From: a bacterium
GTDB taxonomy: Bacteria > Zhuqueibacterota > Zhuqueibacteria > Oceanimicrobiales > Oceanimicrobiaceae
Direction: 5' to 3'
NCBI GenBank assembly: GCA_046757165.1
Contig: JBHHXT010000006.1
Location: 780-64,779 of the forward strand
DNA: 64,000 nt
The number at the start of each line of letters is the position of its first letter. Position 1 is the stretch's first letter. Positions 1-25,120 of the stretch are shown here, in pieces. The notes beneath the pieces are model-generated. The model was not told where the DNA came from and made no database searches. It saw only the letters and a program-made list of their open reading frames with translations. The translations under genes were made by a program, and so were the position numbers.

Positions 1-3000
1 AAGGGTCGCTTCGTTTGAAGGCTTCGATGTGTCGGTAGGCGGTCAGGGCATCTTCATACATTTGGTTACGGAAGTAAGCATTGCCCAACATGACGTACCC
101 ATCCGTAAAATCGGGGTCGCGTTTGATGGCAGCTTTGAAGCAGATGATCGCGTCCTCGTATTGTTTGTCTTGATAGTGTTGTGTACCGCGCGACAACTCA
201 GCCGGTGGTTGTTCGGCTGGCGGACGGTCATCGGCATAGGTCGGAGTCGCGCGGCGCTGCACCGGTGGTGTTTGGCTGCCGGCTGCGACTTCGCCGTGCG
301 GTGTGGATGTCCTCTGTTCTGCATCGATGTCACCAACATGCTCGCTTTGAGGCTCGATCGAAAGGCTGGGTTCCGGGGCATGTGAACGGGTCGCAAGCTT
401 GTCATCGAGCTCGTTGCTTGTAATCTCGAAACCTTTGAGGGAAGGGAAGACGGGAGTGTCTGGTGGTTTTCGCGGCGTTTCCTTGGTTTCTTCCGGTGCA
501 GTCAAGTCCGGGCTTGCCATCTCCGGCGCGTCGACCGTGTCCTCGCGCGCCAGAAATTCCACAGCCTCTTTTTCAGGTGAGATGTCATGAATGTTCTTGT
601 TCTCGAGGGCAATTTCTGAATCTTGCTGCTCCGCTGCAGGTGTGTCTCCTTCGTTGTCTATGAAGTCCGGACGAACCTGAATCTCACTCTCTACTTCCTT
701 TGTCTCCTCGTCGGGAAAGTCCGTCTCGGGCTCGTTCTGCCCGAGGAGTGCCTCTACGGTGGTGTCGAAGTAGCCCTCGTGTTCTCTGGTCTCGGCACCG
801 GAATCAGAATCAGACAGGTCGGTGTTCGCCTCGGTCTCTGTCAACGCATCCGGCATCGGGGGGCCTGCGTGGCTGGATTCGGGTTTGTCGGCGTCGTCCT
901 GCGTCGTTTCTGATGCGCCTGCTGCGGAACCATCTGCACCCTCAGCAGGGCCTTCAGGCCGCGTCGCGCTATCTTCTGCCGCCCCGGGCTCCTGTCCTTG
1001 CTTTGTCTCGAATGAACCTTCGGCAGCAGAGCCGGCGTCTCCGATCAGCTCACCAGTGGCAGCCTCCATACCCGAATAAAACTCGATGATGTCATCGGGT
1101 TGGATGGGGTGAGTCGAGCCGAGCAAGGTGCCCTCAGACGGGACGGGTCCGGGCAAGCCCGCTTGTTGGTCGATTTGCTCCGGTGGTGGGACCGTTTCCG
1201 CCGGTTCAGGCCCATCTTCTGCATGAACGGGCCTGGTGGCTTCGTCTGTGGAACGAGACTCTGGTTCGGCCGCACCCGGCTGGCTCGCGAACGGTTCTAT
1301 CTCAGCGATTTCAAATTCAGCAGGCGCACCTGGCAGGCCCACACCCTGTTCTCTTGCCAATTCCAGGTCGTCTGTCTTCGCGGTGCCCTCGGACTCGGCC
1401 TGAGGCGGTTGAACATCGCTCTCCAGGGTTTCTTGCCCGGATTCGATGATTGCGGCTTCCTGCTCGTCAGTGCCGGATTCATCGGCATCGGCGCTCGCGA
1501 GATTGTCCGGTACCTCAGGTTCAACCTGCAGTTCTTGTTCCGTGTCGACTGGCAGCTCTGGAGTGCTCTCCTGCGTCAAGTCAGGCGGTGGAGCCGTGTC
1601 GCAGATTTCCGGCTCAGCAGGGTGAATTTCTCCGGCAGCATCCGAAGATAGGATGGCATGTTCCGGTGCCTCTGGCTCCTCTGACTCGACATGGGATTGA
1701 GCCTCGGGTTCGCGCTCCGCAACCTCGCCAGCCTCACGCTCTTGCCCGGCCAGGGGTTGCACCGCGGCTTCAGACTTGTCGTCCGGTTCGGCCGCAGCTT
1801 CTTTCCCGCCATCTTCTGCCGCCGCTTCCAGCACATCCACTTCGTCCGGCGTTGCAGGGGCCGCGGGCAGCAAGGCTTCCGGTTCTCGTCCGGCCGGGGC
1901 GTGCACGGTGGCTTCAGACTTATCGTCCGGTTCGGCTGCGGCTTCTTTTTCGCCATCTTCTGCCGCCGCTTCCAGCACATCCACATCGTCCGGCGTCTCA
2001 GGGGCCGCGGGCGGTAAGGGTTCCGGTTCTTGCCCGGCCGGGGCGTGCACCGCGGCTTCAGACTTGTCGTCCGGTTCGGTTGCGGCTTCTTTTTCACCAT
2101 CTTCTGCCGTTGCTTCCAGCACATCCACATCGTCCGGCGTTGCAGGGGTGGCGGGCAGTGAGGGTTCCGGTGGTTCTGGGGCTTCCGCGGTCTCGACTTC
2201 ACTCGATACGTCGTCGGACTTGTCCTCAATCTCTGCTGGGCGCTCGGGTTCCGCAGGCGCCTCTTTCGCCGTGGCCGGGACGACATCCTCGGCCATCTCG
2301 ACCGAGTCGGGCGAGTCGTCCACCGGGCTCTCTGTTGTTTCAGCGGGTGCGCTTTCCACTGTTGCTGGCGGGCTGGCAAGATTTCTGGCATAACTATCAA
2401 AGATGGAATCTATCAAAGAATCTGAGATATCTTCGGCAAGAAGAGTACTGCTCTCGTCGCCACCAGCGTCGCCGGTCAACTCTGTACCGGCCGGCAGATG
2501 CAGCGCCTTCCTGTCGGTTTCCAGAGGGTCATCCATGCGGGCATTCAAATCCTGGGCGGCGCCTGGCACGTCCGTTTCTTCGACTTCTGCGCCGCCGGCA
2601 ACGTCTGCGGCGACCTCAGTTTGGTCCAACGAGAGCGTTTCATCCGGCCTGTGCGTTTCGGTCAACTCTTCACGGTTCGTGCTGGAGATGAGTTGGTCGA
2701 GAAAATCACCAAATACGAAATCAGCCTCGATGTCCGGACAAAAGAAGGCGGTGTCCGACCGGTCCTGTTCAAACGAAGGTTCACTCGATTGACTCTTCTG
2801 GCCGGTGGGGGCGCCGGGTTCGGCAGGTTTGTCGCCCTTGCGGATGGCCGGCTGATCGCTTGTGAGAGGCGCCACACGCAGCCTCTTGCGTATCTTGATG
2901 TGGCCATTCAGGGACAGTTGCGGCGTGCCTGGCGGGTTGGCGTTGCGCTGTTTTTCTGCACACAATTTGGCGTATCGTCTGCGCAATTCAGGGGTGGGCA

Positions 3001-5188
3001 GCTTTTGTCTTTGCAGTTCTGCTTCGATCTTCTCAGCGTTGATTTTGGTCTCTTTGTATCTGGGAAGCTCGAGCTCAGCCGCGATCTCAGCAGGTGCAAA
3101 TTCAGGATGGTGCGCCACAACATCCAGCATTTTGGTTGTGTCTTCAATGCTGAGGTATTTGCTTTCGACCGAAAGACCTTCCTCGACGGGCACGGGTTCT
3201 GCTTGTCCTTCAGGCTCCGCGTCGGTTTTTTTTCGAATTGTGACGATGGTGATATCATCGTGCAGCGGCCCGTCTTCCCGAAAGGAATAGATGCTGTTTT
3301 TCAGCTTTTCAACGAACAGAGTGAGCGGCAGTTTGCTGTGCCTTCTGACTTGCTTCAGGAGCCTTTCTTCGCCAAATTCGCCTCGTTGTGGATTTCTCGC
3401 TTCCGTAATCCCATCTGTATACAGGAGAATAGTGTCGCCGTCTTGCAGTTGAATCGTTTCCGACACGATATTATTGCGGAAGAAATCTTTTTCCGGCAGC
3501 GTGATGCCCACCGGACACCCTATCGGGTTGAGGTAAAACGTCTTGCCCGTTTCCCCACGATGCAGGATGAGGGGAGTATGGCCGCCACTGGCAAAATTCA
3601 CCACGCAGGTTTTTGTGTTGACCACCAGGTAGAAGACGGTGACGAACATGCCGTTCCGCAGGTCGTTCGCGACGAAATCGTTGACTCGTGTCAGCACCTC
3701 CGCCGCGTCATGAACGCCCCGCGCCTCGGTCCTCAGTGCCGTGCGAATCATGGTCATGACCATCGAACCGGGCACGCCTTTGCCGGCAACGTCGGCTATG
3801 ACAACCCCGAGTCGGTCCTGGTCGACCTCGATAAAATCATAGTAATCGCCGCTGACTGTTGCGGCCCCCTCATAGTATGCCGCAATCTCGATCTTGTCCA
3901 GAACCGGGATTTGGGCTGGCAACAGGGACTGCTGAATATCCTTTGCCAGATGTATCTCCTTCTCGAACCGTTCGCTTTGCTCCAGGTGCTTTTGGGTTTC
4001 GTTGAATCTTTGCGTGATGTCACTGAACGCCCGGGCAATCTCTCCAATCTCAGAGGAGCCATCAATATCGAGATCCTTTCTCACTTCTCCCTTGCCGGTC
4101 GCTCTAACCCACTCTGAGAGTTTGCGCACAGGGTAGTTGATAATGAAACTGAAGAGCGCCAAAAGAACATAGCTGGCGCCCAGCGTCACGAGCCCTAGCT
4201 TAATGTAACGCAGCCGTCTAAGATGCACTTCATTGTCAACGTAGTGTTTTGAGAGCAGAATATGGACCTTTTTGTAGGCCGCGGGTTCATTCTCGAAATT
4301 CAATCGCCGTTCGAACTCATAGACGGCCACGCTATCGTTGAGTACGTAGGTGGTGACGCCTGGCACGAAATCAGCCACCTGGCCAGGCCGGACAAAGGGT
4401 GAATCCAGCTCTGCCTCGACCGTCGACCAGGCAATGTGACCCAGGCTGTCTTCAACCGAAAGGCTATAGATTTGTCCGAAGTTTTCTTCATAGATGGGCA
4501 AGAGAATGGCACTCAAATAGGATTCACCGTCCGGGCCGTTCAACAGCCCCGGTTTGATGGCACTGATCTGGTTGCCGACCTGTTTGCACAGCTTTCGGCC
4601 AGACTGGATGAATACGTCGCTGACTCTTTTTTCTGCTTGCCAGTAATAGTAGCCGACGCCGGCGACATTGAAGAGCGTGACAAGCAAGATGGCGTTGACA
4701 AAATAGCGGATCTTCGAGGCCGGCGGCAGCCCCCACAAATAGGTCAGACTCAACCGCTTTGGATGTCCCCTGTCGACCTTGGTCAAACTCAGCTCATTGC
4801 CCGCCTCAGACTTGCGATAGTCGATCTCGTCCATCAGCTTGCGCATCATAAAGATGCCCAGCCCGACCTTTTCGCCCAGACCGGCCGTTTCTTTGATGTT
4901 GGGCGTTCTGGCCCATTTCGGATCGAAAAAGGCGCCCTGGTCGATGAGATTGATGGTCAGACTCTTTCGGCGAACGATGGCCTGAATGGTGATATACCCT
5001 TCGTTTTCGCTGTAGGCATGGTTAATGATATTGGTGGCGGCCTCATCGATGGCAATTTTGAAGGCGTTGACCAGTTTACGGCTGTAGCCGTACTTCGTGC
5101 CAATTTGGGTCACAAAGTCGCGCAGGCTGGCCAGGTGGTCAATATGGGCAGGGACGATCAGATGTTCTTTTTGGGCAAATCTAAACAA
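1..5188 (-). CDS. Very large multidomain signalling protein, at least 1729 aa within the window. Minus-strand ORF with TTG start at 5188; its C-terminus runs past position 1, so it is absent from the ORF table. Architecture: RsbW-like HATPase_c serine-kinase/anti-sigma domain, TM1, about 145-aa periplasmic loop, TM2, HAMP, PP2C/SpoIIE phosphatase, about 900-aa acidic low-complexity region with 48-aa tandem repeats, then C-terminal TPR repeats.
   Basis: My manual reverse-complement translation from 5188 to 1 is stop-free and gives meaningful protein throughout. An in-frame TGA lies upstream at 5222-5224, and the TTG start gives MFRFAQKEHLIVPAHIDHLASLRDFVTQIG...IDEAATNIINHAY, a spacing typical of RsbW N-termini. 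Hydrophobic helices YFVNAILLVTLFNVAGVGYYY and LGLVTLGASYVLLALFSFII bracket the loop. The PP2C motifs are IADVAGKGVPGSMVM and ILLYTDGITEA. The tail is rich in E/D/P/A, and the window ends in TPR-like sequence (YEDAIICFKAAIKRDPDFTDGYVMLGNAYFRNQMYEDALTAYRHIEAF). Forward ORFs 2498..4117, 4436..5209 and 1450..2691 are antisense shadows. Confidence 0.75.
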   Translation of the reverse strand, partial: MFRFAQKEHLIVPAHIDHLASLRDFVTQIGTKYGYSRKLVNAFKIAIDEAATNIINHAYSENEGYITIQAIVRRKSLTINLIDQGAFFDPKWARTPNIKETAGLGEKVGLGIFMMRKLMDEIDYRKSEAGNELSLTKVDRGHPKRLSLTYLWGLPPASKIRYFVNAILLVTLFNVAGVGYYYWQAEKRVSDVFIQSGRKLCKQVGNQISAIKPGLLNGPDGESYLSAILLPIYEENFGQIYSLSVEDSLGHIAWSTVEAELDSPFVRPGQVADFVPGVTTYVLNDSVAVYEFERRLNFENEPAAYKKVHILLSKHYVDNEVHLRRLRYIKLGLVTLGASYVLLALFSFIINYPVRKLSEWVRATGKGEVRKDLDIDGSSEIGEIARAFSDITQRFNETQKHLEQSERFEKEIHLAKDIQQSLLPAQIPVLDKIEIAAYYEGAATVSGDYYDFIEVDQDRLGVVIADVAGKGVPGSMVMTMIRTALRTEARGVHDAAEVLTRVNDFVANDLRNGMFVTVFYLVVNTKTCVVNFASGGHTPLILHRGETGKTFYLNPIGCPVGITLPEKDFFRNNIVSETIQLQDGDTILLYTDGITEARNPQRGEFGEERLLKQVRRHSKLPLTLFVEKLKNSIYSFREDGPLHDDITIVTIRKKTDAEPEGQAEPVPVEEGLSVESKYLSIEDTTKMLDVVAHHPEFAPAEIAAELELPRYKETKINAEKIEAELQRQKLPTPELRRRYAKLCAEKQRNANPPGTPQLSLNGHIKIRKRLRVAPLTSDQPAIRKGDKPAEPGAPTGQKSQSSEPSFEQDRSDTAFFCPDIEADFVFGDFLDQLISSTNREELTETHRPDETLSLDQTEVAADVAGGAEVEETDVPGAAQDLNARMDDPLETDRKALHLPAGTELTGDAGGDESSTLLAEDISDSLIDSIFDSYARNLASPPATVESAPAETTESPVDDSPDSVEMAEDVVPATAKEAPAEPERPAEIEDKSDDVSSEVETAEAPEPPEPSLPATPATPDDVDVLEATAEDGEKEAATEPDDKSEAAVHAPAGQEPEPLPPAAPETPDDVDVLEAAAEDGEKEAAAEPDDKSEATVHAPAGREPEALLPAAPATPDEVDVLEAAAEDGGKEAAAEPDDKSEAAVQPLAGQEREAGEVAEREPEAQSHVESEEPEAPEHAILSSDAAGEIHPAEPEICDTAPPPDLTQESTPELPVDTEQELQVEPEVPDNLASADADESGTDEQEAAIIESGQETLESDVQPPQAESEGTAKTDDLELAREQGVGLPGAPAEFEIAEIEPFASQPGAAEPESRSTDEATRPVHAEDGPEPAETVPPPEQIDQQAGLPGPVPSEGTLLGSTHPIQPDDIIEFYSGMEAATGELIGDAGSAAEGSFETKQGQEPGAAEDSATRPEGPAEGADGSAAGASETTQDDADKPESSHAGPPMPDALTETEANTDLSDSDSGAETREHEGYFDTTVEALLGQNEPETDFPDEETKEVESEIQVRPDFIDNEGDTPAAEQQDSEIALENKNIHDISPEKEAVEFLAREDTVDAPEMASPDLTAPEETKETPRKPPDTPVFPSLKGFEITSNELDDKLATRSHAPEPSLSIEPQSEHVGDIDAEQRTSTPHGEVAAGSQTPPVQRRATPTYADDRPPAEQPPAELSRGTQHYQDKQYEDAIICFKAAIKRDPDFTDGYVMLGNAYFRNQMYEDALTAYRHIEAFKRSDP
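1759..2190 (-). repeat. Three tandem 144-bp in-frame repeats (48 aa each) inside the acidic region of the 1..5188 gene.
   Basis: The units begin at about 1759, 1903 and 2047 (period 144 bp) and are near-identical, with forward-strand core gcttcagacttgtcgtccggttcgg...ccagcacatccac. On the minus strand they encode PATPDDVDVLEA(A/T)AEDGEKEAA(A/T)EPDDKSEA(A/T)VHAPAGQEPE-type units. Confidence 0.8.
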
Positions 5189-5264
5189 ACTCTGTTCTCG
5201 ATGCGTTAGACCGATTCTCCCTCACGATGAGGAGAGAGTCAGTCGTGTCCATGCGGCAGGGCCA

Positions 5265-6026
5265 TCAACTCTTTTTCGAGTTGAGCGTGATGCTTTGCAA
5301 CTGATTCTTCTTGAGACTTCCCAGGAACACAGGGTACTCGCACTTTCTTCTCAAGTTCTCTGCCAGCAGTCTGCCTCCGATCGCATTTTTGTCCGATTTA
5401 TTGATGAAGATAGCAATGTGGGCGTGGATCGGGATGTTTTTCAGGTAGCTATAGGGCGAGATCAGCTCACGAGCGATGATTTCAGGCGTCAGGGTCGTGC
5501 CCATTTTCAGGTCCCACTTTCTTGCAAAAAGCTCCGCGCGGTGGACCCATTTATCGCTCAGGGGTTGCCCCACTGCCTCGGCGCCACAAATAATAATCAC
5601 GGAAGTGCAGTCGCCCGGAATGACAGGCTCGTACTCTTTGTGTGTCTTCAAGGGTCGTTGTCGGGCCCCATCTGCCTCAACCAAAACGATATCGGACTTT
5701 GTTCGCAGCTCCGAGACGGTTTGCTGACTCACCCCCAGCAGCCGGTTCTTCTCCTGATAAGAATCTTTAGCGACAGCGGCAAGCTTCGATGTTTGGAGCC
5801 AGGATTCTACCTCTGACAGGTAGTCCCGGCTTTCCGTCTGCAGAACGGTGGCAATCCTGGACGAGACCTGGAATTTGGTGGTTGAGGTCAACACAACTCT
5901 CAAGTTGCGTTCAATCAACTCCCTGGAAAGTTTGTCCATCAAGGTGGATTTGCCCCCGCCGCCGATGATAGCGACGACCTGGTTTGCCGGGGCATTTCTC
6001 GAGTCGATAAGCGCTGCCAATTGCAT
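5265..6026 (-). CDS. yqeC: YqeC-family P-loop protein (putative selenium-dependent molybdenum hydroxylase accessory protein).
   Basis: 253 aa with an N-terminal Walker A motif (VVAIIGGGGKSTLM) and a size and motif layout matching the YqeC/TIGR03172 family. The family assignment is from memory of that family. Confidence 0.5.
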   Translation of the reverse strand: MQLAALIDSRNAPANQVVAIIGGGGKSTLMDKLSRELIERNLRVVLTSTTKFQVSSRIATVLQTESRDYLSEVESWLQTSKLAAVAKDSYQEKNRLLGVSQQTVSELRTKSDIVLVEADGARQRPLKTHKEYEPVIPGDCTSVIIICGAEAVGQPLSDKWVHRAELFARKWDLKMGTTLTPEIIARELISPYSYLKNIPIHAHIAIFINKSDKNAIGGRLLAENLRRKCEYPVFLGSLKKNQLQSITLNSKKS

Positions 6027-10748: not shown

Positions 10749-11017
10749 GCGCTTCCTGGCCGGTGCGGCGGTGTACAGGCTTTCAGCTTGCTTTGGGTAA
10801 GGGGAGCAACATGATGCCAAGTAAACACCCTGAAGTGAACTCCGAGAGCGGGGCGGTCGGTGTTCAAGCTTCAGCTTGAGGGGAGTGGTTGGGACACGCG
10901 GCTTACCCAAATCACGAATACCCGGAGCCGGTGAGAAGACTATTCAACGGTGAATCGCTCAATTCAGGTTAAAGCCCGACAGTAAGAACACAAAGAACAC
11001 AGCAAAAGGAGCAGACA

Positions 11018-15127: not shown

Positions 15128-15883
15128 ATGAAAAACAGGCTTGCAACGTACCTTTTTGCGCTCAACGTTCTTCTTCTTGGCGCACCCCCTTCAAACGCGC
15201 AAATCCCGGACAAATTCGAGAACCTGCAAGTTCTCCCCAAAGATCTCAGCAAGCAGGAGCTCATGGCCCATATGCGGGCCTTCGCCAGAGGGTTGGGCGT
15301 GCGCTGCCAACACTGCCATGTCGGCGAGGAAGGGCAGCCGCTGTCGACCTTTGACTTCGCCTCTGACGAAAAACCGGTGAAGGAAACCGCTCGGATTATG
15401 ATGAAGATGCGACAGGAAATCAACCAAACCTTTATGACGCGCTTGGGCAAAGAGAAAGCGCAGACACTGCAAGTCAACTGTGTCACCTGTCACCACGGAC
15501 AGTCGAGACCACAAACGCTCGAGCAAGTGCTAACAGGTGTTTTAGATGCCGATGGTATCGACGCAGCAACCGAGAAGTATCGCGAGCTGCGAAAGCAGAA
15601 TTATGGTGGCTTTGCCTTTGATTTTGGCGAGTTCACCCTGCTGAGGCTTGCAAGCGAGCTGTCAGAAAAAAACCTCGAGGCGGCCATCGCCATGCTGAGA
15701 CTCAACCTGGAATTCTATCCGGAATCCGCTTTCACCCATTACTCCCTCGGCGAAGGGTACGCCCAAAAGGGAGACAAGGCGCTGGCCATCGAGCATCTGC
15801 AAAAAGCGTTGGCCATTCAACCGCAGAATCGACGGGCGAAAAGAAGACTGGACCAGCTTTCCAAGAGCTCAGACACGCATTGA
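15128..15883 (+). CDS. Secreted diheme c-type cytochrome with C-terminal TPR-like region.
   Basis: It has a signal peptide (MKNRLATYLFALNVLLLGAPPSNA) and two CxxCH heme-binding motifs (CQHCH, CVTCHH). The C-terminal 90 aa are TPR-like (AFTHYSLGEGYAQKGDKALAIEHLQKALAIQP). Confidence 0.7.
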   Translation: MKNRLATYLFALNVLLLGAPPSNAQIPDKFENLQVLPKDLSKQELMAHMRAFARGLGVRCQHCHVGEEGQPLSTFDFASDEKPVKETARIMMKMRQEINQTFMTRLGKEKAQTLQVNCVTCHHGQSRPQTLEQVLTGVLDADGIDAATEKYRELRKQNYGGFAFDFGEFTLLRLASELSEKNLEAAIAMLRLNLEFYPESAFTHYSLGEGYAQKGDKALAIEHLQKALAIQPQNRRAKRRLDQLSKSSDTH

Positions 15884-17430: not shown

Positions 17431-20400
17431 CTAGATGATCCCCTCCAATTCCGCTTTTGCCGGTTCCTGTTCTTCACTCTCGAGCCGTTTCATCATATTG
17501 CCATAGCGATGGTCGATCTTGAAGCCGAATTTGTAAAAGTACTGAGGTCGCAGGTAGCCAACCGTGACGATTTCTACCCCCTGACTTGTCAATCGGTTGA
17601 AGAACTCGTTCAGCAGTCCATCGCTGATTTCTTTTCTGCGGTGATGCTCCTGCACCACGATTTTCTCCAGGTGCACATGCTTGGCATCCACATGATGGTA
17701 GAACATGCCCGCAACAACGCGCCCACGGGGATTGAGCACGACGAGATACTGATGCTCAGGTCGAAACTCCACCGGTAGATTTGCCAGCGTGAAAAGTTTG
17801 TGTAGTTTTGCGATTTCCTTCGGATTGGCTGGTTTGCGCACCGCCAGTTGATTGCCATCATTGTCCTCGATAAACACGACCAGGGAGGTCTTCTCCGCGC
17901 CCTCAGAAGTGAGGGACACGAACTCTGCTTCGTGTTTGACGCCAAGGTGGGGGTAGGAAAGCCGGGTGAGAAAAAACTGCTCCTCGTGCGAAAAGTGGTT
18001 GCGGCCACGTAACTCGGCCAAATGTTCCGGCAGTTCATAGGTTGCGACTTCCTTACGTCTAACCCTGCGTAAAATCTGATTCAAACCATCGATGAGCGTG
18101 GGATCGCTGTGGGAAAAAACCGTGTCGCGAAAGAACTGGATTCGGGCACCGGGGTATTTTTTTTCGATCTGGGCCAGGATGTAAGTCGTGTATAAGTCAC
18201 GCAAGGTCTGCATACGGGCTTGCCGTGTTGCAGCCGGATTCAAGACATACCAGCGTTTGAAGCGGGCGATGGCAAAGTGGAGCCGTTCTGGCTTGTAGCC
18301 TTTCTCTCGCACAGAAGTGATGAATTCACTCAAGTTTTTCACCAGCTCGTCCGTCTCGCCGGGTTCATCGTTTTGCTGGTCGCTCTCGATGGCTTGCTCG
18401 AAAAGCTGCACCCCTTCCTTCTCCCCCAGGATCTCGAGAAAAGCAGAAAAGATGACATGCCAGCTACATCGACCTTTTAGATGGGTGTACGTCGACTCGG
18501 CCGAAAGAATGAAGTGTCTTCGAAACGCCAGGATCATTTCAAAGAGAGTTGCAAAGGGTTTGCGCGACGAAATCGAAACGATACGGAAGCCGACCAGGAA
18601 ATCATGCGACGGCACGATGACGTTTGCCGGCGTCGGATCAGCGATTTCCAACGTTCGGCCCGTTCGATTCCAGAAATCGATGTAGGCGCTCAGGCCGTTC
18701 CAGACAAACGAGGGCCAGAGTTGTTGCATCCGCTCCTCGCCGTCTTTGGCGGCTTGCCGGTCCAGGCGTCGCAGATACCTGGCGACCGTCTCACCGGGGA
18801 TGAACTCTTCGGTCCACAATCCATATTCTGGCCAATAGCCTCCAAACTCCTCGACTAACGGAGTCCTGTCGTCGGTTGCCCCGGCGCAGATCAGCCAGTT
18901 GATCTCGGAGATGATTTCGTCGTCGGAGAGCGATTTGTTGAGATTGATGGCGACGTCAAATGCGCCGTAGCTGTGCGTTTGCACCGACACCCGGTAGACC
19001 GCTTTTCCGTGCAAGGCACCCAGGAAGCTGATGTAGATTCCCTGTTGCGGGATTTCATGCAGCGGAATAAGCCGGCCGCCGGAGAAGATGAAGATGGCCT
19101 CCCTGAGCAAGGGACCCTTCTGAATCGCCTCGGCCATGATTTCGCGGTCACTCGAGGGGATGGTTTCTTCGAAGAACAACACATCCTTCCAGCGAAACTC
19201 CTCACGGGTTTCAGGGTCGATGGCGATCTGTAAATTGTCGCCCAACCAGTTGCGGAACCCCTTTCGCAAGGTTTGCAGGCAGCGCTCGGCTTGGGTCTTG
19301 ATGGCGCCGTCGGGGGCAAAAATGCGCCACCTCACCAGCTCCGCCCGGATGGACTTATGCGCGACCGGATGCTGGACGCCGTAGGCTGTGATAAATCGCA
19401 ACATCGCTTTGATCGGAAATTTGGACGCCTTCTCCTGGCCGTTTTGCACGCTTTGCAAGCACGCTGCCAGGTAGTCCAGAAGAGTGTTGAGTTGATCTTT
19501 TGAGAAGTCGTGGCGGCTCAGTCTGGCGATTGTGTCCCGGTCGAGGATGGCATGTTTCGCCAGCAGAAACCGCTCCAGAATGGGCCTGAGCAAGTTTCTC
19601 TTTTCATTGAGCAAAAGCACCTGGAATGCTCGCCTTTTGATGGCTGTGTTGCTCGAGGCACAGGAGCGCATCAGGACCCCTTTGGCCAGGCGAAGTGTTT
19701 TTTCATTTTTGTCAGAGATGACCGCTTGCAGATAATCGATGGCCTTGAAGGCAGCCTTTTCCTGCCAGGTTTGCAGCACGAACGCGGCGACGTGAACACC
19801 CTGAACACTTTTGTATTTTGCTTTCATGATCTTGCCAAAGTCCTCCGCCACTCGTCTCTGCAGAGGTGCCGGCTTGCTTGCCAACTGCAGTTGAATCGTC
19901 GAACTGTGGGAAACGTTGCCCGTGGCGACGCGGAAGATTTTGTGCCCGACGAAGTGGCCTAGTTGCAGGTTTCCCAGCCACAACGTTGGATCCCGCACAA
20001 TCATGCCCAGGTCCAAATAATTCTCCTCCGTCTCATAGACGAAACTGCCGATTTGCATGCGACAGCATCCACTCCTTTTCAGTCTCCTGATATGCAATTT
20101 TGTCTTTGTGGGCGTCAGGACAATGGCGGAGCCTTGCACTTTCAGGTCATTCGAAGTCAGACCCTGTGCCCGCAGGAACCAGGACGGGATGCGAAAGTCA
20201 AAGCCGTCGACCGTGAGCGAAACATAATCCCGGGCGTACATCTCCTCGATGACAGGGGCAAAATTCTGCTCGATGGCTTTACGCTTGTACGTGCTTTTGA
20301 CGGTCAGCTCTCCCCGGTCGGCCTCGAAGTCCCGGTCGATGATAGTGAAATTGACGATTCTTTCGTAGGGCGCCAGGAACTGGTTGATGGAAACAATGAT

Positions 20401-22230
20401 AGAGCCGAAGAACTCCCGCAGCTTCTCATGGCTGAGCTGGCGAAGATTCACTTGTTCATAGTCATAGTTCGGAAAGAGCAGCAGCGTGTTGTACTCCCGG
20501 CGGTCGCCAACCAGGAACACACGCCTGACCGCTTCAAAATCGTTGAACAGGTTTTCGATTTTTTGTGGGGAGATGGTTTCCCCCTGTACGCTCTTGTAAA
20601 TCTCTTTCTTCCTATCGATGATCTCGAAAAATCCCTCGCCGTCCTGGCGGAAGATATCCCCGGTGTGCAGCCATCCGTCCTCCATCCCGGTGGTTTCATC
20701 GTCCAGGTAGCCCATCATGACATAGGGACCTCGAATGAGCATTTCACCATCCTGCGCCAGCTTGATATCGATGCCGGGCAGGGCTTTCCCCACGGAGTTG
20801 GTGCGGTAATCGAAAGGTGGGGTCATGGTGATGCCGCCGGTCGCTTCGGTCATGCCAAATCCGCTCATGATTTCGACCCCGCATTCCTGAAAGAATCGAA
20901 AGATGTCGGGGTCGAGGTAGCCGGCGGCGGACAGCCCCCATTTCAAGCACCCCCCGGTCATCTCTTGCACGACCGCGCGCACCCCGGCAAGCGGTGCATG
21001 TTCAACGTCGATCTTCTCACCGATCTTTTCACGCAATTGAATCCATTTCTTGGGAATGCTGATAAAGACAGTGGGCCGGGTCAATTGCATGTTCTCGACG
21101 ATGGTTTCGATCTTGGTGTTTTCGATGAAGCTGTAGGTGGCGCCCCAGAAGAGAGACCCGACCATCTCGAAGTATCTGCCGAACGTGTGAAACAGGGGCA
21201 GGTAGCAAAGAAAGCGGTCCTGGTCTCCGATTTGTGGCAGCGCGATGGCACGGGCGAAACGCTTGCTGATGATGTTGCGGTGCGAGAACATGATACCCTT
21301 CGGGGCCTCGGTGGTGCCTGAGGTGTACATGACGGTCGCAAGATCATCCAGTTTGACCCCGGCCATGGCCTCGATGACCGTGCTGTCTGGCAACGTGATG
21401 CCGCGCAACAAGAATTCACCAAATGAGATGATTTGGTCATCAGCGGGAATCTGAGTCGTGTCCATGGCGACCGTCAGGTGGACCTCCTTTGTTTGCCTCC
21501 AAATCTTCAGCAGCTCGGCCAGGCGGCGGTCTCGAGACACGAAGATGACTCGGACCCGCGAGTGATTGATGATAAATCTGATGGTTTGCGGCGTGGCATT
21601 GACCGGGATAGGCACATTGACGATGCCGCAGATCAGGCACGCCAGGTCGATGCATACCATGTCCAGGGTGTTATCCGACAGGATGGCCACGCGGCAGGGC
21701 CCGGAGGGCTGCGCAAGCTCGGCTGTGATGTCCAGAAGACTTTTGGCAATGGCGAAAACCCGGCTTTGCAGCTCCCGCCAGGAGTGGTTCATTGCCCTGC
21801 GCCCGGACAGGGTCTGGAAGATGGATTTTTCGCCGTATTCCTGCACCCGCTGCATCAACAGCGCGCCCGTGGTGAAATTGCTCGCATCCACGATGGCCAG
21901 CAGCAACCGGAACCAGTCCTCTGACAGATTGTTCTCCTGAACTTTTTGCAGGACACAGCTCCGGCGTGCCGCGTTCAGGAAATTGTGGAGTATCCTTACG
22001 AGATGGGGCTGTTGGGCCGGGCCGCACGCTTTCAGACTCTTAAGCAGGCGTTCACCCAGTTGGCAAAGAAGCGGAATCTCGAGGTGCGCCATATTCGTCG
22101 AAGATATCGCGCCATCTGTTAGCAGGTCGAGCAGCTGCTGGACGCGGCCGTTTTTGTGCCGGCCGTTTCCGGAATGCAGGGCCTGGATGACCTCGTCAAC
22201 CTGTTGCAAGACCTCTTTGTCAGTGAGCAT
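17431..22230 (-). CDS. Giant multidomain protein of about 1599 aa. It has an N-terminal region of about 180 aa of unknown function, an AMP-dependent synthetase/ligase (acyl-CoA synthetase-like) domain, about 900 aa of uncharacterised sequence, and a C-terminal GNAT-like acyltransferase fold.
   Basis: An AAGGA ribosome-binding site lies 6 nt before the ATG at 22230 (MLTDKEVLQQ), whereas the table start at 22389 falls in an AT-rich region. The AMP-binding motifs are MYTSGTTEAPKGIMFSHRN and GYLDDETTGMEDGWLHTGDI...IIDRKKEIYK. The C-terminal 110 aa (HQYLVVLNPRGRVVAGMFYHH...EISDGLLNEFFNRLTSQGVEIVTVGY...FYKFGF) resemble a GNAT fold. The central region has no motif I can name, and the forward ORF 19963..21321 is an antisense shadow. 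Confidence 0.7.
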   Translation of the reverse strand: MLTDKEVLQQVDEVIQALHSGNGRHKNGRVQQLLDLLTDGAISSTNMAHLEIPLLCQLGERLLKSLKACGPAQQPHLVRILHNFLNAARRSCVLQKVQENNLSEDWFRLLLAIVDASNFTTGALLMQRVQEYGEKSIFQTLSGRRAMNHSWRELQSRVFAIAKSLLDITAELAQPSGPCRVAILSDNTLDMVCIDLACLICGIVNVPIPVNATPQTIRFIINHSRVRVIFVSRDRRLAELLKIWRQTKEVHLTVAMDTTQIPADDQIISFGEFLLRGITLPDSTVIEAMAGVKLDDLATVMYTSGTTEAPKGIMFSHRNIISKRFARAIALPQIGDQDRFLCYLPLFHTFGRYFEMVGSLFWGATYSFIENTKIETIVENMQLTRPTVFISIPKKWIQLREKIGEKIDVEHAPLAGVRAVVQEMTGGCLKWGLSAAGYLDPDIFRFFQECGVEIMSGFGMTEATGGITMTPPFDYRTNSVGKALPGIDIKLAQDGEMLIRGPYVMMGYLDDETTGMEDGWLHTGDIFRQDGEGFFEIIDRKKEIYKSVQGETISPQKIENLFNDFEAVRRVFLVGDRREYNTLLLFPNYDYEQVNLRQLSHEKLREFFGSIIVSINQFLAPYERIVNFTIIDRDFEADRGELTVKSTYKRKAIEQNFAPVIEEMYARDYVSLTVDGFDFRIPSWFLRAQGLTSNDLKVQGSAIVLTPTKTKLHIRRLKRSGCCRMQIGSFVYETEENYLDLGMIVRDPTLWLGNLQLGHFVGHKIFRVATGNVSHSSTIQLQLASKPAPLQRRVAEDFGKIMKAKYKSVQGVHVAAFVLQTWQEKAAFKAIDYLQAVISDKNEKTLRLAKGVLMRSCASSNTAIKRRAFQVLLLNEKRNLLRPILERFLLAKHAILDRDTIARLSRHDFSKDQLNTLLDYLAACLQSVQNGQEKASKFPIKAMLRFITAYGVQHPVAHKSIRAELVRWRIFAPDGAIKTQAERCLQTLRKGFRNWLGDNLQIAIDPETREEFRWKDVLFFEETIPSSDREIMAEAIQKGPLLREAIFIFSGGRLIPLHEIPQQGIYISFLGALHGKAVYRVSVQTHSYGAFDVAINLNKSLSDDEIISEINWLICAGATDDRTPLVEEFGGYWPEYGLWTEEFIPGETVARYLRRLDRQAAKDGEERMQQLWPSFVWNGLSAYIDFWNRTGRTLEIADPTPANVIVPSHDFLVGFRIVSISSRKPFATLFEMILAFRRHFILSAESTYTHLKGRCSWHVIFSAFLEILGEKEGVQLFEQAIESDQQNDEPGETDELVKNLSEFITSVREKGYKPERLHFAIARFKRWYVLNPAATRQARMQTLRDLYTTYILAQIEKKYPGARIQFFRDTVFSHSDPTLIDGLNQILRRVRRKEVATYELPEHLAELRGRNHFSHEEQFFLTRLSYPHLGVKHEAEFVSLTSEGAEKTSLVVFIEDNDGNQLAVRKPANPKEIAKLHKLFTLANLPVEFRPEHQYLVVLNPRGRVVAGMFYHHVDAKHVHLEKIVVQEHHRRKEISDGLLNEFFNRLTSQGVEIVTVGYLRPQYFYKFGFKIDHRYGNMMKRLESEEQEPAKAELEGII

Positions 22231-22459
22231 AACGTCCTTTTCAAAGATGACGTGACGGATAGAAATTAAACAGACCTGGCTATAAATACAAACAAAATTT
22301 TTTGTCATCTGACTCGGAAAGAACAGATGGAACGAAAAATGGTCAAACCCGATGCCGGGAACGCACATGTTTTTGCTTGCAATTCGCACAAATAAATCTT
22401 ATCATTTTGCTTTGAGTTCGATTTGCACTGGTTCGATGAAAGGAGCTAAATAGAGTGCC

Positions 22460-24772: not shown

Positions 24773-25120
24773 ATGAACGTTTTGACAACAAACGAACGCG
24801 CTGAGGTTCCGAGAGAAGCCATCTTGGACGTCGTGGAACAAAAAAAAACCAGGTTCAATCCGCAGAAAATCATCCTCTTTGGATCCTATGCACGCGGTAC
24901 GCAAGGCCCCGGCAGTGATGTAGACCTTCTTGTCGTTATGCCCTTGGAGAAAAAACCGCTCCGCCAGGCCATCGAGATTCTGCAGAACATAGATTATCAT
25001 TTCGGCCTGGATCTGATTGTCAGGAGTCCGGAGGCGTCAATGAGGCGAGTAAAGCTGGGCGATTTTTTTCTGCAGGAAGCGGTTGAGCAGGGGGTTCTTC
25101 TTTATGAATCCGATCATTGA
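24773..25120 (+). CDS. MntA-type minimal nucleotidyltransferase (type VII TA antitoxin-like), apparently orphan.
   Basis: 115 aa with the Pol-beta superfamily motif GSYARGTQGPGSDVDLLVV. The expected HepT/HEPN partner is absent: only a 48-aa ORF (25104..25250, ATG overlapping the stop as ATGA) follows, and it has no HEPN motif. Confidence 0.6.
   Translation: MNVLTTNERAEVPREAILDVVEQKKTRFNPQKIILFGSYARGTQGPGSDVDLLVVMPLEKKPLRQAIEILQNIDYHFGLDLIVRSPEASMRRVKLGDFFLQEAVEQGVLLYESDH

Follow-up and report, generated by a model that had tools for sequence, protein, structure and literature searches.

A predicted Cache-gated STAS-protein kinase/phosphatase with a long acidic linker, an apparent lineage-specific paralogue in a widespread family

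The minus strand of the window, by which is meant the whole stretch of 64,000 nucleotides analyzed here, is translated from 5188 to 2 into 1729 codons with zero stops. The first start codon of this open reading frame (ORF), TTG at 5188, aligns with Met-1 of the homologues, and the nearest in-frame stop upstream of the ORF lies at 5224-5222. The ORF exits the window at base 1, and the C-terminal end that is missing is predicted from the relatives to comprise approximately 200 residues, including a second TPR module. The original prediction described this region as a single stop-free ORF of more than 5.1 kb, which agrees with the 1729 codons, and stated that a frameshift splitting it into separate genes would overturn this description. 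No such frameshift is detected. Fusion of separate genes by a frameshift is ruled out by the continuous frame and by homologues that are collinear over their full length, and is also countered by short-read contigs from three other sequencing runs, which anchor exactly on the first 3 kb of the gene. These contigs, which were located via the product of the neighbouring yqeC gene, agree with the window from end to end, and the outer 40 bases of two of them anchor at 10839 and at 2050 or 2169. The contigs all terminate within a 144-bp tandem repeat, so that the region from aa 1 to approximately aa 1040 is independently assembled; the ORF beyond approximately aa 1040 rests on the present assembly and on the matching architecture in relatives. 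The very long membrane protein is real, encoded by a single gene and correctly read. The features of the locus are as follows.

1..5188, minus strand: single ORF of at least 1729 codons, with a TTG start at 5188 and the C-terminus beyond base 1
4778..5152, minus strand: RsbW/SpoIIAB-type serine kinase domain (HATPase_c_2), aa 13-137, from Pfam and motifs
4643..4711, minus strand: transmembrane (TM) helix 1, approximately aa 160-182, preceded by a K/R-rich segment, from hydropathy
4199..4642, minus strand: periplasmic single-Cache/PDC sensor, aa 183-330, from AF2, Foldseek and the Pfam matches of relatives
4133..4198, minus strand: TM helix 2, approximately aa 331-352, from hydropathy
4025..4141, minus strand: HAMP, aa 350-388 by Pfam, with family-invariant P353 and L357
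3821..4024, minus strand: helical segment (aa 389-456) linking HAMP to the phosphatase, from family conservation
3233..3820, minus strand: PP2C/SpoIIE phosphatase, aa 457-652 by Pfam, from Pfam and motifs
2960..3172, minus strand: helical domain of homeodomain-like type, aa 673-743, with a homologue at the C-terminus of the STAS partner of the family
2894..2935, minus strand: nearly invariant motif (K)PPGTPxLxLxG, approximately aa 751-765, from the family alignment
224..2818, minus strand: acidic Pro/Ala-rich disordered linker, aa 791-1655, from composition and charge
1740..2171, minus strand: 144-bp tandem repeat in 3 copies inside the linker, from Tandem Repeats Finder
2..223, minus strand: first TPR module, aa 1656-1729, truncated by the window edge, from Pfam
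5265..6026, minus strand: yqeC, 253 aa, upstream and co-oriented; its synteny with icd marks the orphan clade described below

The N-terminal domain has the partner-switching kinase fold that was originally assigned to it. HATPase_c_2 of Pfam matches aa 13-137 with 85 bits (cut-off, 27.4) and full profile coverage, and the ATP-binding motifs are intact, because the N-box (E49/N53/H57), the G1 box (D83-x-G85) and the G2 box (G109-L-G111) are kept, as is the conserved R23. When the domain is aligned residue by residue to RsbW (PDB 6m36, E 2e-11) and SpoIIAB (1th8), the catalytic residues are placed in the known motifs, with DEAATNIINHAY, LIDQGAFFD and GLGIFMM aligning with the N-box, G1 and G2 motifs respectively. 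E49, N53, H57, D83, G85 and G109-G111 are invariant in the 26 aligned family members, including the window copy. In RsbW, the counterpart of R23 falls in the N-terminal arginine region; in SpoIIAB, this arginine makes contact with the sigma factor as well as with the antagonist. The RsbW equivalogs of NCBIfam are not reached, with 66.9 bits vs 145 for NF003144 and 56.9 bits vs 155 for TIGR01924. Genomic linkage to STAS genes, which is seen in the relatives, suggests that the kinase acts on a serine residue of a STAS protein.

Only two hydrophobic segments exceed a Kyte-Doolittle value of 1.6, at approximately aa 160-182 and aa 331-352, and approximately 148 residues lie between them. This intervening region was originally regarded as a periplasmic loop flanked by two TM helices. 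The two helices and the extracytoplasmic location are retained, but the region is a folded single-Cache/PDC domain and not a mere loop. The AF2 model of aa 183-330 has a mean pLDDT of 93.4 and, between the TM helices, shows an antiparallel sheet at its centre with a long helix on the N-terminal side and another helix on the C-terminal side, as expected for a single Cache/PDC domain. The best PDB match of this domain in Foldseek is the extracellular domain of WalK (E 5.8e-6, TM 0.70), further matches are Tlp3, CitA and DctB (E 6e-6 to 1e-3 overall), and the periplasmic domain of Chlamydia RsbU (6mab) is among the weaker fold matches. Pfam sCache_3_2 matches the relative L064 with 33.7 bits (cut-off, 28.4) and does not match the window copy. 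A HAMP linker, also predicted originally, is present directly after the TM helix (27.1 bits vs a cut-off of 25, with P353 invariant), and the score of this domain rises to 44.9 bits in relatives. By analogy, the helical linker at aa 389-456 is likely to be a coiled-coil signal transmitter; helical linkers, HAMP-linked ones included, control PP2C domains, as in RsbU/RssB (PMC12143880). Both termini are cytoplasmic, and the kinase and the phosphatase are therefore located in the cytoplasm around an extracytoplasmic sensor.

The SpoIIE profile PF07228 matches aa 457-652 with 166.7 bits (cut-off, 25) over profile positions 2-190 of 192. All of the PP2C catalytic Asp residues, absence of which was named in the original prediction as grounds for rejecting this assignment, are present in the metal-binding motifs GD448yyD451, D466vaGKG471, D592G and D644D645. 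The corresponding four conserved segments, vsGDyyD, aDvaGKG, ytDGitE and hDDiT, align to their counterparts in SpoIIE, Rv1364c and SiaA, and D448, D451, D466, G469-K-G471, D592-G593 and D644-D645 are invariant in the same 26 members. The metal-binding motifs reach slightly N-terminal of the Pfam envelope. The presence of one ORF, the Pfam folds, the motifs and the topology together bear out the proposal that the kinase and phosphatase arms reside on one membrane protein.

Two features between the phosphatase and the acidic region were overlooked in the original prediction. One is the homeodomain-like domain, which is homologous to the C-terminal domain of the STAS partner (hhalign, 98.65%). 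The other is the PPGTP..L.G motif.

The original prediction did not recognize this domain order as that of a described family. Full-length homologues with the same order are, however, abundant, and Vibrio fischeri SypE shares the order kinase, regulatory module and PP2C. Full-length matches are found in more than 120 protein clusters, and the best 120 matches cover 82-100% of aa 1-696 (most of them 100%) with 37-51% identity. The same core, as defined by a match to at least 550 of the 660 core HMM positions, is present in 83 sampled loci, the window included. The hosts belong to Calditrichota, KSB1, Zixibacteria, Latescibacterota, Eisenbacteria and related phyla, and one member is encoded by the cultured Caldithrix abyssi. 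The family carries only automatic annotations, such as 'SpoIIE family protein phosphatase' and 'serine phosphatase RsbU/anti-sigma regulatory factor', and no description of this kinase-Cache-HAMP-PP2C family was found in the open-access literature, within which absence is not proof. These comparisons indicate that the architecture belongs to a widespread, unstudied family and is not a one-off invention.

Synteny in relatives, which was recommended as a check, is conserved. A STAS gene lies immediately downstream on the same strand, or is fused, in 72 of the 76 assessable non-yqeC loci (approximately 95%), and is 25-125 nt downstream in all five loci with recorded gene calls. The fused relatives, which are of the Latescibacterota type, contain three STAS domains within the same polypeptide. 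The STAS partner has approximately 220-250 residues with an extra HTH-like domain, and scores 71 bits with the NCBIfam anti-sigma-antagonist model (cut-off, 53.45). Its invariant Ser, in the motif VDYIS-S-AGWG, occupies the alignment position of the serine that is phosphorylated in SpoIIAA and TM1442. A gene for a PorV/PorQ-family protein with TPR is located immediately upstream of the family gene, and the first gene in the order of the module encodes a giant protein, for which the only family match is a sub-threshold type IX secretion tail. In Caldithrix abyssi, the PorV-linked operon is found at L005. No sigma-factor gene is found among the annotated genes of five relatives' loci or among the window genes scanned, and the link to a sigma factor that was originally suggested is therefore unsupported.

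Partner-switching modules, which consist of a kinase, a phosphatase and a STAS protein, are a major currency of bacterial signalling, but most of the work on them concerns Firmicutes, Actinobacteria and a few Proteobacteria. Judged by architecture, the closest characterized analogue of the window protein is V. fischeri SypE, in which a single polypeptide likewise carries a regulatory module flanked by an RsbW-like kinase on the N-terminal side and a PP2C domain on the C-terminal side. SypE is a kinase-REC-PP2C protein, of which both activities act on one STAS protein, SypA, which is encoded downstream and carries the output (PMC10120452). The central module of SypE is a cytoplasmic REC domain, whereas that of the window protein is TM1-Cache-TM2-HAMP without a REC match. 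The homeodomain-like domain, the acidic disordered region and TPR are all present in the window protein and all absent from SypE. SypA is a single-domain protein of 105 residues, unlike the longer STAS partner of the family with its HTH-like domain. A STAS substrate at the same locus, as for SypE, is present in the parent family, but not beside the window copy.

The other known systems share individual features with the window protein. SiaA of the SiaA/SiaB/SiaC system of Pseudomonas aeruginosa is a membrane-anchored HAMP-PP2C protein opposing an RsbW-like kinase on a STAS protein, and the output of this system, like that proposed for the family, is independent of a sigma factor. The HAMP-PP2C part has SiaA among its best matches (PDB 6k4e; NCBIfam NF038263). 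However, NF038263 gives 67 bits against a cut-off of 700, and for the HAMP-PP2C part only, indicating that the window protein is not an orthologue of SiaA. In the Sia system, moreover, the kinase and phosphatase are separate proteins and not a fusion, and no diguanylate cyclase partner is seen for the window protein. The RsbU/RsbW/RsbV and SpoIIE/SpoIIAB/SpoIIAA systems of Bacillus have the same three folds, catalytic motifs and STAS phospho-serine position, but they are composed of three separate proteins, have a sigma factor as the output, and sense via RsbT/stressosome or the division septum instead of a Cache domain. Rv1364c of Mycobacterium tuberculosis is a multidomain partner-switching fusion (PAS-PP2C-kinase-STAS), in which STAS is fused onto the enzyme as in the Latescibacterota-type relatives, and for the PP2C domain its structure (3ke6) gives the best sequence match in the PDB (E 3e-12). 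It differs in that the phosphatase precedes the kinase and in its cytoplasmic location; its sensor is a PAS domain, and a membrane sensor is lacking. Chlamydia trachomatis RsbU has a periplasmic sensor, a membrane span and a cytoplasmic PP2C domain, as does the window protein, but it lacks a fused kinase, and its periplasmic sensor module is made up of two domains.

We consider it probable from these sequence data that the gene product is a bifunctional STAS-protein kinase/phosphatase of the inner membrane, which is Cache-gated and follows SypE-type logic with a TM sensor in place of the receiver. A ligand or an envelope signal at the Cache domain would be transmitted through TM helix 2, HAMP and the helical linker to the regulatory switch of the PP2C domain, where it would set the phosphatase activity. 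The membrane-adjacent kinase domain would phosphorylate the conserved serine of the STAS protein, so that the phosphorylation state of this protein would be determined by the balance between the kinase and the phosphatase. The output would be carried by the unphosphorylated STAS protein, as for SypA. The homeodomain-like domain that is common to the enzyme and the STAS protein probably unites the two, either on DNA or by pairing.

RsbW-type kinases can double as anti-sigma factors. If this were the case here, the N-terminal domain would sequester an alternative sigma factor at the membrane, and the PP2C domain would dephosphorylate a STAS antagonist, which then frees the sigma factor. The top NCBIfam and PDB matches of the kinase are indeed the anti-sigma-B factor RsbW and the anti-sigma-F factor SpoIIAB, and the alignment of R23 with the N-terminal arginine region of RsbW points in the same direction. 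Such a classical sigma switch is nevertheless unlikely, because no sigma-factor gene is among the annotated genes of the five relatives' loci or among the scanned window genes, the NCBIfam scores are far under the RsbW equivalog cut-offs (67 vs 145 bits), an HTH-like domain has been added to the STAS protein that is the conserved partner, and SypE/SypA and SiaABC exert their output via a STAS protein and not a sigma factor (PMC10120452; PMC9239204).

The window copy itself is located in a different context from most members of the STAS-linked family. The upstream PorV/PorQ-TPR gene and the downstream STAS-HTH gene are not found in the window or in its clade; instead, the gene follows yqeC, with which it is probably co-transcribed. 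The yqeC/icd synteny is common to L009 and L011-L014 and is kept across at least six genomes. In the tree, which excludes the frameshifted L012, the window copy groups with L009, L011, L013 and L014 in a single clade that lies within the STAS-linked family. The metagenome-assembled genome CR04bin15 contains L011, which is linked to yqeC, as well as L018, which is linked to a STAS gene; the Calditrichaceae STAS protein of L018 is encoded at 4041-4739. A search for STAS substrates, which was also recommended, yields none in the 64-kb window, either with the family STAS HMM against all stop-to-stop ORFs of at least 60 aa or with Pfam on ten mostly small window ORFs (95-226 aa), and none is found within 6 kb downstream in L014 or within 356 nt in L012. 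The clade thus has no adjacent STAS gene, no PorV gene and no first HTH, and its TPR module is doubled. Replacement of the PorV/STAS context by the yqeC linkage marks it as a derived paralogue, and the window gene is a stand-alone duplicate within a clade confined to Calditrichaceae. According to this reading, the Calditrichaceae duplicate would have left the STAS operon, lost the first HTH, doubled the TPR module and expanded the acidic linker. Bacillus RsbU and RsbP both act on RsbV. In a similar way, the window copy most likely works in trans, delivering a second signal to the same STAS protein.

An orphan of this kind might instead be decaying or repurposed, such that it serves as a scaffold via its acidic region and TPR with vestigial enzyme domains. 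The long branches of the clade in the tree, the frameshift in the relative L012, the missing STAS gene, PorV gene and first HTH, and the variable, fast-evolving linker (22-34% identity; pN 0.47 vs pS 0.76) would fit this possibility. It is improbable, however, because all the catalytic residues are kept and the core is strongly constrained, with 72.5% amino-acid identity to L012 and saturated synonymous sites (pN 0.16, pS 0.76). The synonymous sites are saturated relative to every available relative, and dN/dS proper is therefore not computable. In addition, the ORF reaches its stop codon intact in L011 and L014, no stop interrupts the part recovered from the window and from L009, which are truncated by the window or contig edge, and the yqeC synteny is conserved in at least six genomes. 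Pseudogenization of the orphan copy is rejected for the core on account of its intact catalytic residues and of a pN far below pS.

The family couples a SypE-like two-enzyme polypeptide to a transmembrane Cache-HAMP sensor across many poorly studied FCB-related phyla, and the module is in a fixed gene order beside the PorV/PorQ-family gene, with a STAS partner that has an extra HTH-like domain. If functional, it would be a simple two-protein system (sensor/enzyme and STAS-HTH) in which to study the kinase/phosphatase balance set by one membrane receptor, and a candidate regulator of surface or secretion functions in Calditrichota and KSB1. The four genes, which encode in this order the giant protein, the PorV/PorQ-family outer-membrane protein-TPR fusion, the Cache-gated kinase/phosphatase and the STAS protein with the homeodomain-like domain, might tentatively be viewed as an undescribed multi-phylum pathway that links a phosphorylation switch to the state of either the cell surface or type IX secretion, with the window protein as a diverged member. 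The STAS-HTH protein would then act directly, possibly on DNA, rather than through a sigma factor, and the duplicated sensor of Calditrichaceae, with its hyper-expanded acidic tether, would represent a second input. The window gene itself, as a lineage-specific paralogue of a common family, carries a more modest message.

The linker at aa 791-1655 consists of 865 residues with 26% D+E, 5% K+R and a net charge of -183, and lies on the disordered side of the Uversky charge/hydropathy boundary. The tandem repeat within it (1740-2171; 3.0 copies, 88% matches, no indels) encodes three in-frame 48-aa repeats at aa 1006-1150, given its unit of 144 bp. TPR_1 and TPR_2 match aa 1665-1729 with 36.2 bits (cut-off, 27.8) and 35 bits (cut-off, 27) respectively. 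The acidic repeat region of approximately 900 residues followed by TPR is thus present as originally described. Its size was considered to be unusual, and the window copy does have the longest intact linker sampled, but it is unusual only in degree, because the relatives also have acidic linkers. The acidic disordered region and the TPR modules probably constitute a flexible tether and a protein-docking platform, which is the least supported of our conclusions. Exact-DNA scans of genome and metagenome contigs with the first 50-60 bases of the window, for the downstream region and the C-terminus, give no match, and a protein search with aa 1151-1729 gives none at E<=1e-5, probably because low-complexity words swamped the query. 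A mis-join at the 144-bp repeat, by which the acidic and TPR part after approximately aa 1040 would belong to another gene, is highly improbable, because, although the three independent short-read assemblies end in the repeat at window positions 2050 and 2169 and aa 1151-1729 has no match in a large protein collection, 580 further codons stay open in DNA of approximately 56-63% G+C, the repeat is in frame (144 = 3 x 48), L011, L012 and L014 likewise continue from an acidic linker into a TPR module, and the TPR sequences are closely similar (window, ...YEDAIICFKAAIKRDPDFTDGYVMLGNAYFRNQMYEDALTAY... vs L012, ...YEDAIICFKAVLRRSPDFADGYAMLGNAYFRNQMYSEALTAY...). The conserved islands within the linker include DISDSLIDSIF, which is common to P0001, and ADFVFGDFLDQLIS.

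The open frame, domains, membrane helices and acidic repeats reported in the original prediction are all correctly located and lie far beyond chance. The Pfam domains of the window protein, encoded on the minus strand from position 5188, are as follows.

aa 13-137, HATPase_c_2 (85 bits)
aa 350-388, HAMP (27.1 bits)
aa 457-652, SpoIIE (166.7 bits)
aa 1665-1729, TPR

Only two hydrophobic segments of membrane-helix grade are found, at about aa 160-182 and 331-352. The region between them (aa 183-330), first described as a periplasmic loop, is a folded domain (AlphaFold2 mean pLDDT 93.4). Comparison of this model with PDC/Cache sensors by Foldseek gives the WalK extracellular domain (E 5.8e-6, TM 0.70), followed by Tlp3, CitA and DctB, and the sensor domains of relatives reach the Pfam cut-off of sCache_3_2. 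In the final beta strand of this Cache fold, sensors that otherwise share 13-37% identity have a near-invariant histidine (window aa 309; nt 4262-4264, minus strand), a putative ligand- or metal-contact residue.

Kinase and phosphatase retain all their catalytic motifs: E49, N53 and H57 (N-box), D83 and G85 (G1 box) and G109-L-G111 (G2 box) in the kinase, and D448, D451, D466, G469-K-G471, D592-G593 and D644-D645 in the phosphatase. The motifs are invariant in an alignment of 26 family members, and in pairwise alignments with RsbW, SpoIIAB, SpoIIE, Rv1364c and SiaA the catalytic residues fall in the canonical motifs. A conserved helical, homeodomain-like domain (aa 673-743, about 70 aa) lies C-terminal of the phosphatase and is modelled as four helices (pLDDT about 90); Foldseek gave no significant match to this model. 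Most family members have a second HTH N-terminal of this domain; it passes the Pfam cut-offs of HTH_23, HTH_28 and HTH_29 and is absent from the window copy. IS630/Tc1-type transposases have the pair of HTH_23/29 and HTH_32 as their N-terminal DNA-binding region, and this is regarded here as a lead only. Directly after the homeodomain-like domain, the motif K-P-P-G-T-P-x-L-T-L-D-G is nearly invariant family-wide (window 2894-2935, minus strand; aa 752-765); it is modelled as a low-confidence beta hairpin. The region of aa 791-1655 contains 26% Asp+Glu and 5% Lys+Arg (net charge -183), and is classed as disordered by the charge/hydropathy boundary. The folded Cache domain, the helical domain with its motif and the intactness of all catalytic motifs were absent from the first reading.

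The interpretation offered with the original prediction is partly supported. The architecture exists, but the claim that it is unrecognised is overstated, because the design follows a known principle and the family is a common one. When aa 1-696 are used as a query, 483 significant protein clusters are obtained, of which the best 120 show 82-100% query coverage (most 100%) and 37-51% identity. Scanning one genome per species gives at least 577 relatives, the best 80 of which are from Calditrichota, KSB1, Zixibacteria, Latescibacterota/Krumholzibacteriia, Eisenbacteria, FCPU426, Ignavibacteria, Omnitrophota and several unclassified MAGs. Complete members, which include one from Caldithrix abyssi DSM 13497, are mostly 1100-1215 aa long with the same domain order as the window protein, and their names are purely automatic. 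The full core is present in 83 loci (window counted), and the median length of the 74 complete ORFs is 1200 aa; the window protein, with at least 1729 aa, is the longest intact one among those sampled. Thus, the window protein is an atypical paralogous member of a large, automatically annotated family, for which no description was found in the open-access literature.

Most members of this family are accompanied by a STAS protein. Each of the five loci for which gene calls are recorded encodes a STAS protein (220-236 aa) on the same strand, 25-125 nt 3' of the gene. When the 86 fetched loci are searched with an HMM of these partners, a same-strand STAS ORF is detected downstream or within the same ORF in 72. 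The other 14 consist of five of the yqeC clade (the paralogues linked to yqeC, including the window gene), five cut by a contig end, and four (L020, L021, L043 and L050) in which STAS is absent from the downstream sequence by this HMM; 72 of the 76 assessable parent-type loci therefore have it. The partner passes the NCBIfam anti-sigma-antagonist model (71 bits; cut-off 53.45) and is strongly conserved, with the motifs VDYISSAGWGIFISEIK and GDLKL..M.P.VYEVFELLEF. The partner's second serine aligns with the position of the phosphoserine in SpoIIAA and TM1442. A domain of about 70 aa at the C-terminus of the partner shares homology with the homeodomain-like domain of the enzyme (hhalign probability 98.65%, E 4.8e-16). 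In Latescibacterota-/Krumholzibacteriia-type members, three STAS domains are fused C-terminally and replace the acidic linker and TPR.

L073:6001-10221, STAS-fused member with extra STAS genes downstream; also L056, L074-L079 and L081

This fusion suggests joint action of the two enzymes and the STAS protein.

Of the 75 loci that have usable upstream DNA, about 69 encode an approximately 650-aa protein directly 5' of the gene, and in three more its match overlaps or enters the gene; only yqeC-linked loci are without any match. This protein passes the NCBIfam PorV/PorQ family model with 137-141 bits (cut-off 90) and has C-terminal TPR repeats. The fixed order of PorV/PorQ with TPR, kinase/Cache/HAMP/PP2C, and STAS with the HTH-like domain recurs in nearly all sampled loci (L005-L090), across several phyla; two examples follow.

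L006:3-11381, module
L005:1-14341, module

The PorV-family gene is preceded by that of a giant protein (1600-4700 aa) in all five loci looked up; the giant protein of L006 shows a type IX sorting tail at a sub-threshold score and nothing else. No paper describing the module was found in the open-access literature. This conserved module, rather than the orphan copy in the window, is the most interesting thread, and the orphan copy derives from it.

The window gene and yqeC are co-oriented, with yqeC upstream and a gap of 76 nt (5189-5264); beyond yqeC lies a divergent isocitrate/isopropylmalate dehydrogenase gene (Iso_dh family, called icd). This order is common to five relatives' loci, L009, L011, L012, L013 and L014, which are labelled Calditrichaceae, Caldithrix or Calditrichaeota. 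In L009, the end of yqeC and the start of the window gene's counterpart share 4 nt (1657-2448 and 2445-5622), which suggests translational coupling. No terminator-like or sigma-70-like site is detected on the coding strand in window 5189-5264. Given the overlap and this gap, yqeC and the sensor gene are probably co-transcribed. By neighbour-joining of the core, from which the frameshifted L012 was left out, L009, L011, L013, L014 and the window form one long-branched clade nested in the STAS-linked family. The yqeC-linked relatives are without the first HTH and have two TPR modules. None of them has a PorV-family gene, and no STAS is found downstream in L014 (6 kb), L011 (2.3 kb) or L012 (356 nt), nor is a STAS gene found within the 64-kb window, the remaining neighbourhood of which is ordinary metabolism. 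One MAG holds both a yqeC-linked copy (L011) and a PorV/STAS-linked copy (L018).

Total length in this clade varies widely with the linker: 1253 aa (L014), 1638 aa (L011), at least 1729 aa (window) and about 2300 aa (L012). L012:1283-8369 is the closest relative, with 72.5% identity in the N-terminal part of the core. In its MAG assembly, apparent frameshifts divide it into three overlapping ORFs, and its linker is even longer than that of the window. Between these two, pN is 0.16 and pS 0.76 (synonymous sites saturated) in the core, and pN is 0.47 in the linker. By these values, selection maintains the enzymatic core and constrains the linker only loosely.

The window gene contains 1729 stop-free codons (5188..2, minus strand), and its end is missing because the ORF exits the window at base 1. 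An in-frame TGA is located at 5224-5222, 12 codons upstream of the start, and the next start codon is TTG at 5188. This start agrees with the N-terminus of every homologue: (M)FRFAQKEHLIVPAHIDHL, against the family consensus MFK..KEQL.VPAHIDYL. Three copies of a 144-bp repeat without indels (1740-2171) encode three 48-aa repeats. Three other sequencing runs gave short-read contigs (L001-L003) that bear the neighbouring yqeC gene; the 40-mers at their ends match the window exactly, at 10839 and at 2050 or 2169. Thus, three independent short-read assemblies terminate within the tandem repeat; the first approximately 1040 residues are independently assembled, and the window's repeat count is to be regarded as uncertain and possibly inexact. 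The portion past the repeat is supported by this single assembly, in which the frame is open for 580 more codons. L011, L012 and L014 continue likewise past this point with an acidic linker and then a TPR module closely similar in sequence, and a chimeric join at the repeat is unlikely.

The topology, folds and intact active sites of the window protein are taken as established by computation, and the family is tightly linked to a STAS protein with a phospho-acceptor serine. RsbW/SpoIIAB-type kinases phosphorylate the STAS serine, and SpoIIE/RsbU-type PP2Cs dephosphorylate it. SypE has a kinase and a phosphatase on the same chain, and the two activities determine the phosphorylation of SypA, the carrier of the output (PMC10120452). 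PP2C domains are switched via crossing helical linkers from N-terminal sensor domains, including HAMP (PMC12143880). On this basis, the window protein is read as a dimeric inner-membrane receptor, in which the Cache domain would control the phosphatase via TM2, HAMP and the helical linker, and the membrane-proximal N-terminal kinase would oppose the phosphatase. The substrate of the window copy must be encoded elsewhere. The family's STAS-HTH protein is its most likely target, because the window copy retains the domain resembling that of the STAS partner together with intact enzymes; if so, the cell would have two sensors for one switch. Our best guess is that the homeodomain-like domain, PPGTP motif, acidic region and TPR may serve to co-localise enzyme and substrate and to provide flexible tethering to a docking platform.

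The working principle of SypE is similar, but by architecture the window protein is not a member of the SypE family, since it has no REC domain and different accessory domains. Nor is it an orthologue of SiaA, RsbW or RsbU, because its scores are far below the equivalog cut-offs.

Elsewhere in the window, a 1652-aa ORF (17431-22389, minus strand) begins with an AMP-binding (acyl/aryl-CoA ligase-like) enzyme of about 720 residues, and Pfam gives no match for the C-terminal extension of about 930 aa. A 251-aa protein (15128-15883, plus strand) contains a reaction-centre-type cytochrome c segment (CytoC_RC) and C-terminal TPR repeats. A 115-aa nucleotidyltransferase-domain protein (24773-25120, plus strand; NTP_transf_2/Polbeta) is similar to MNT-type antitoxin components.
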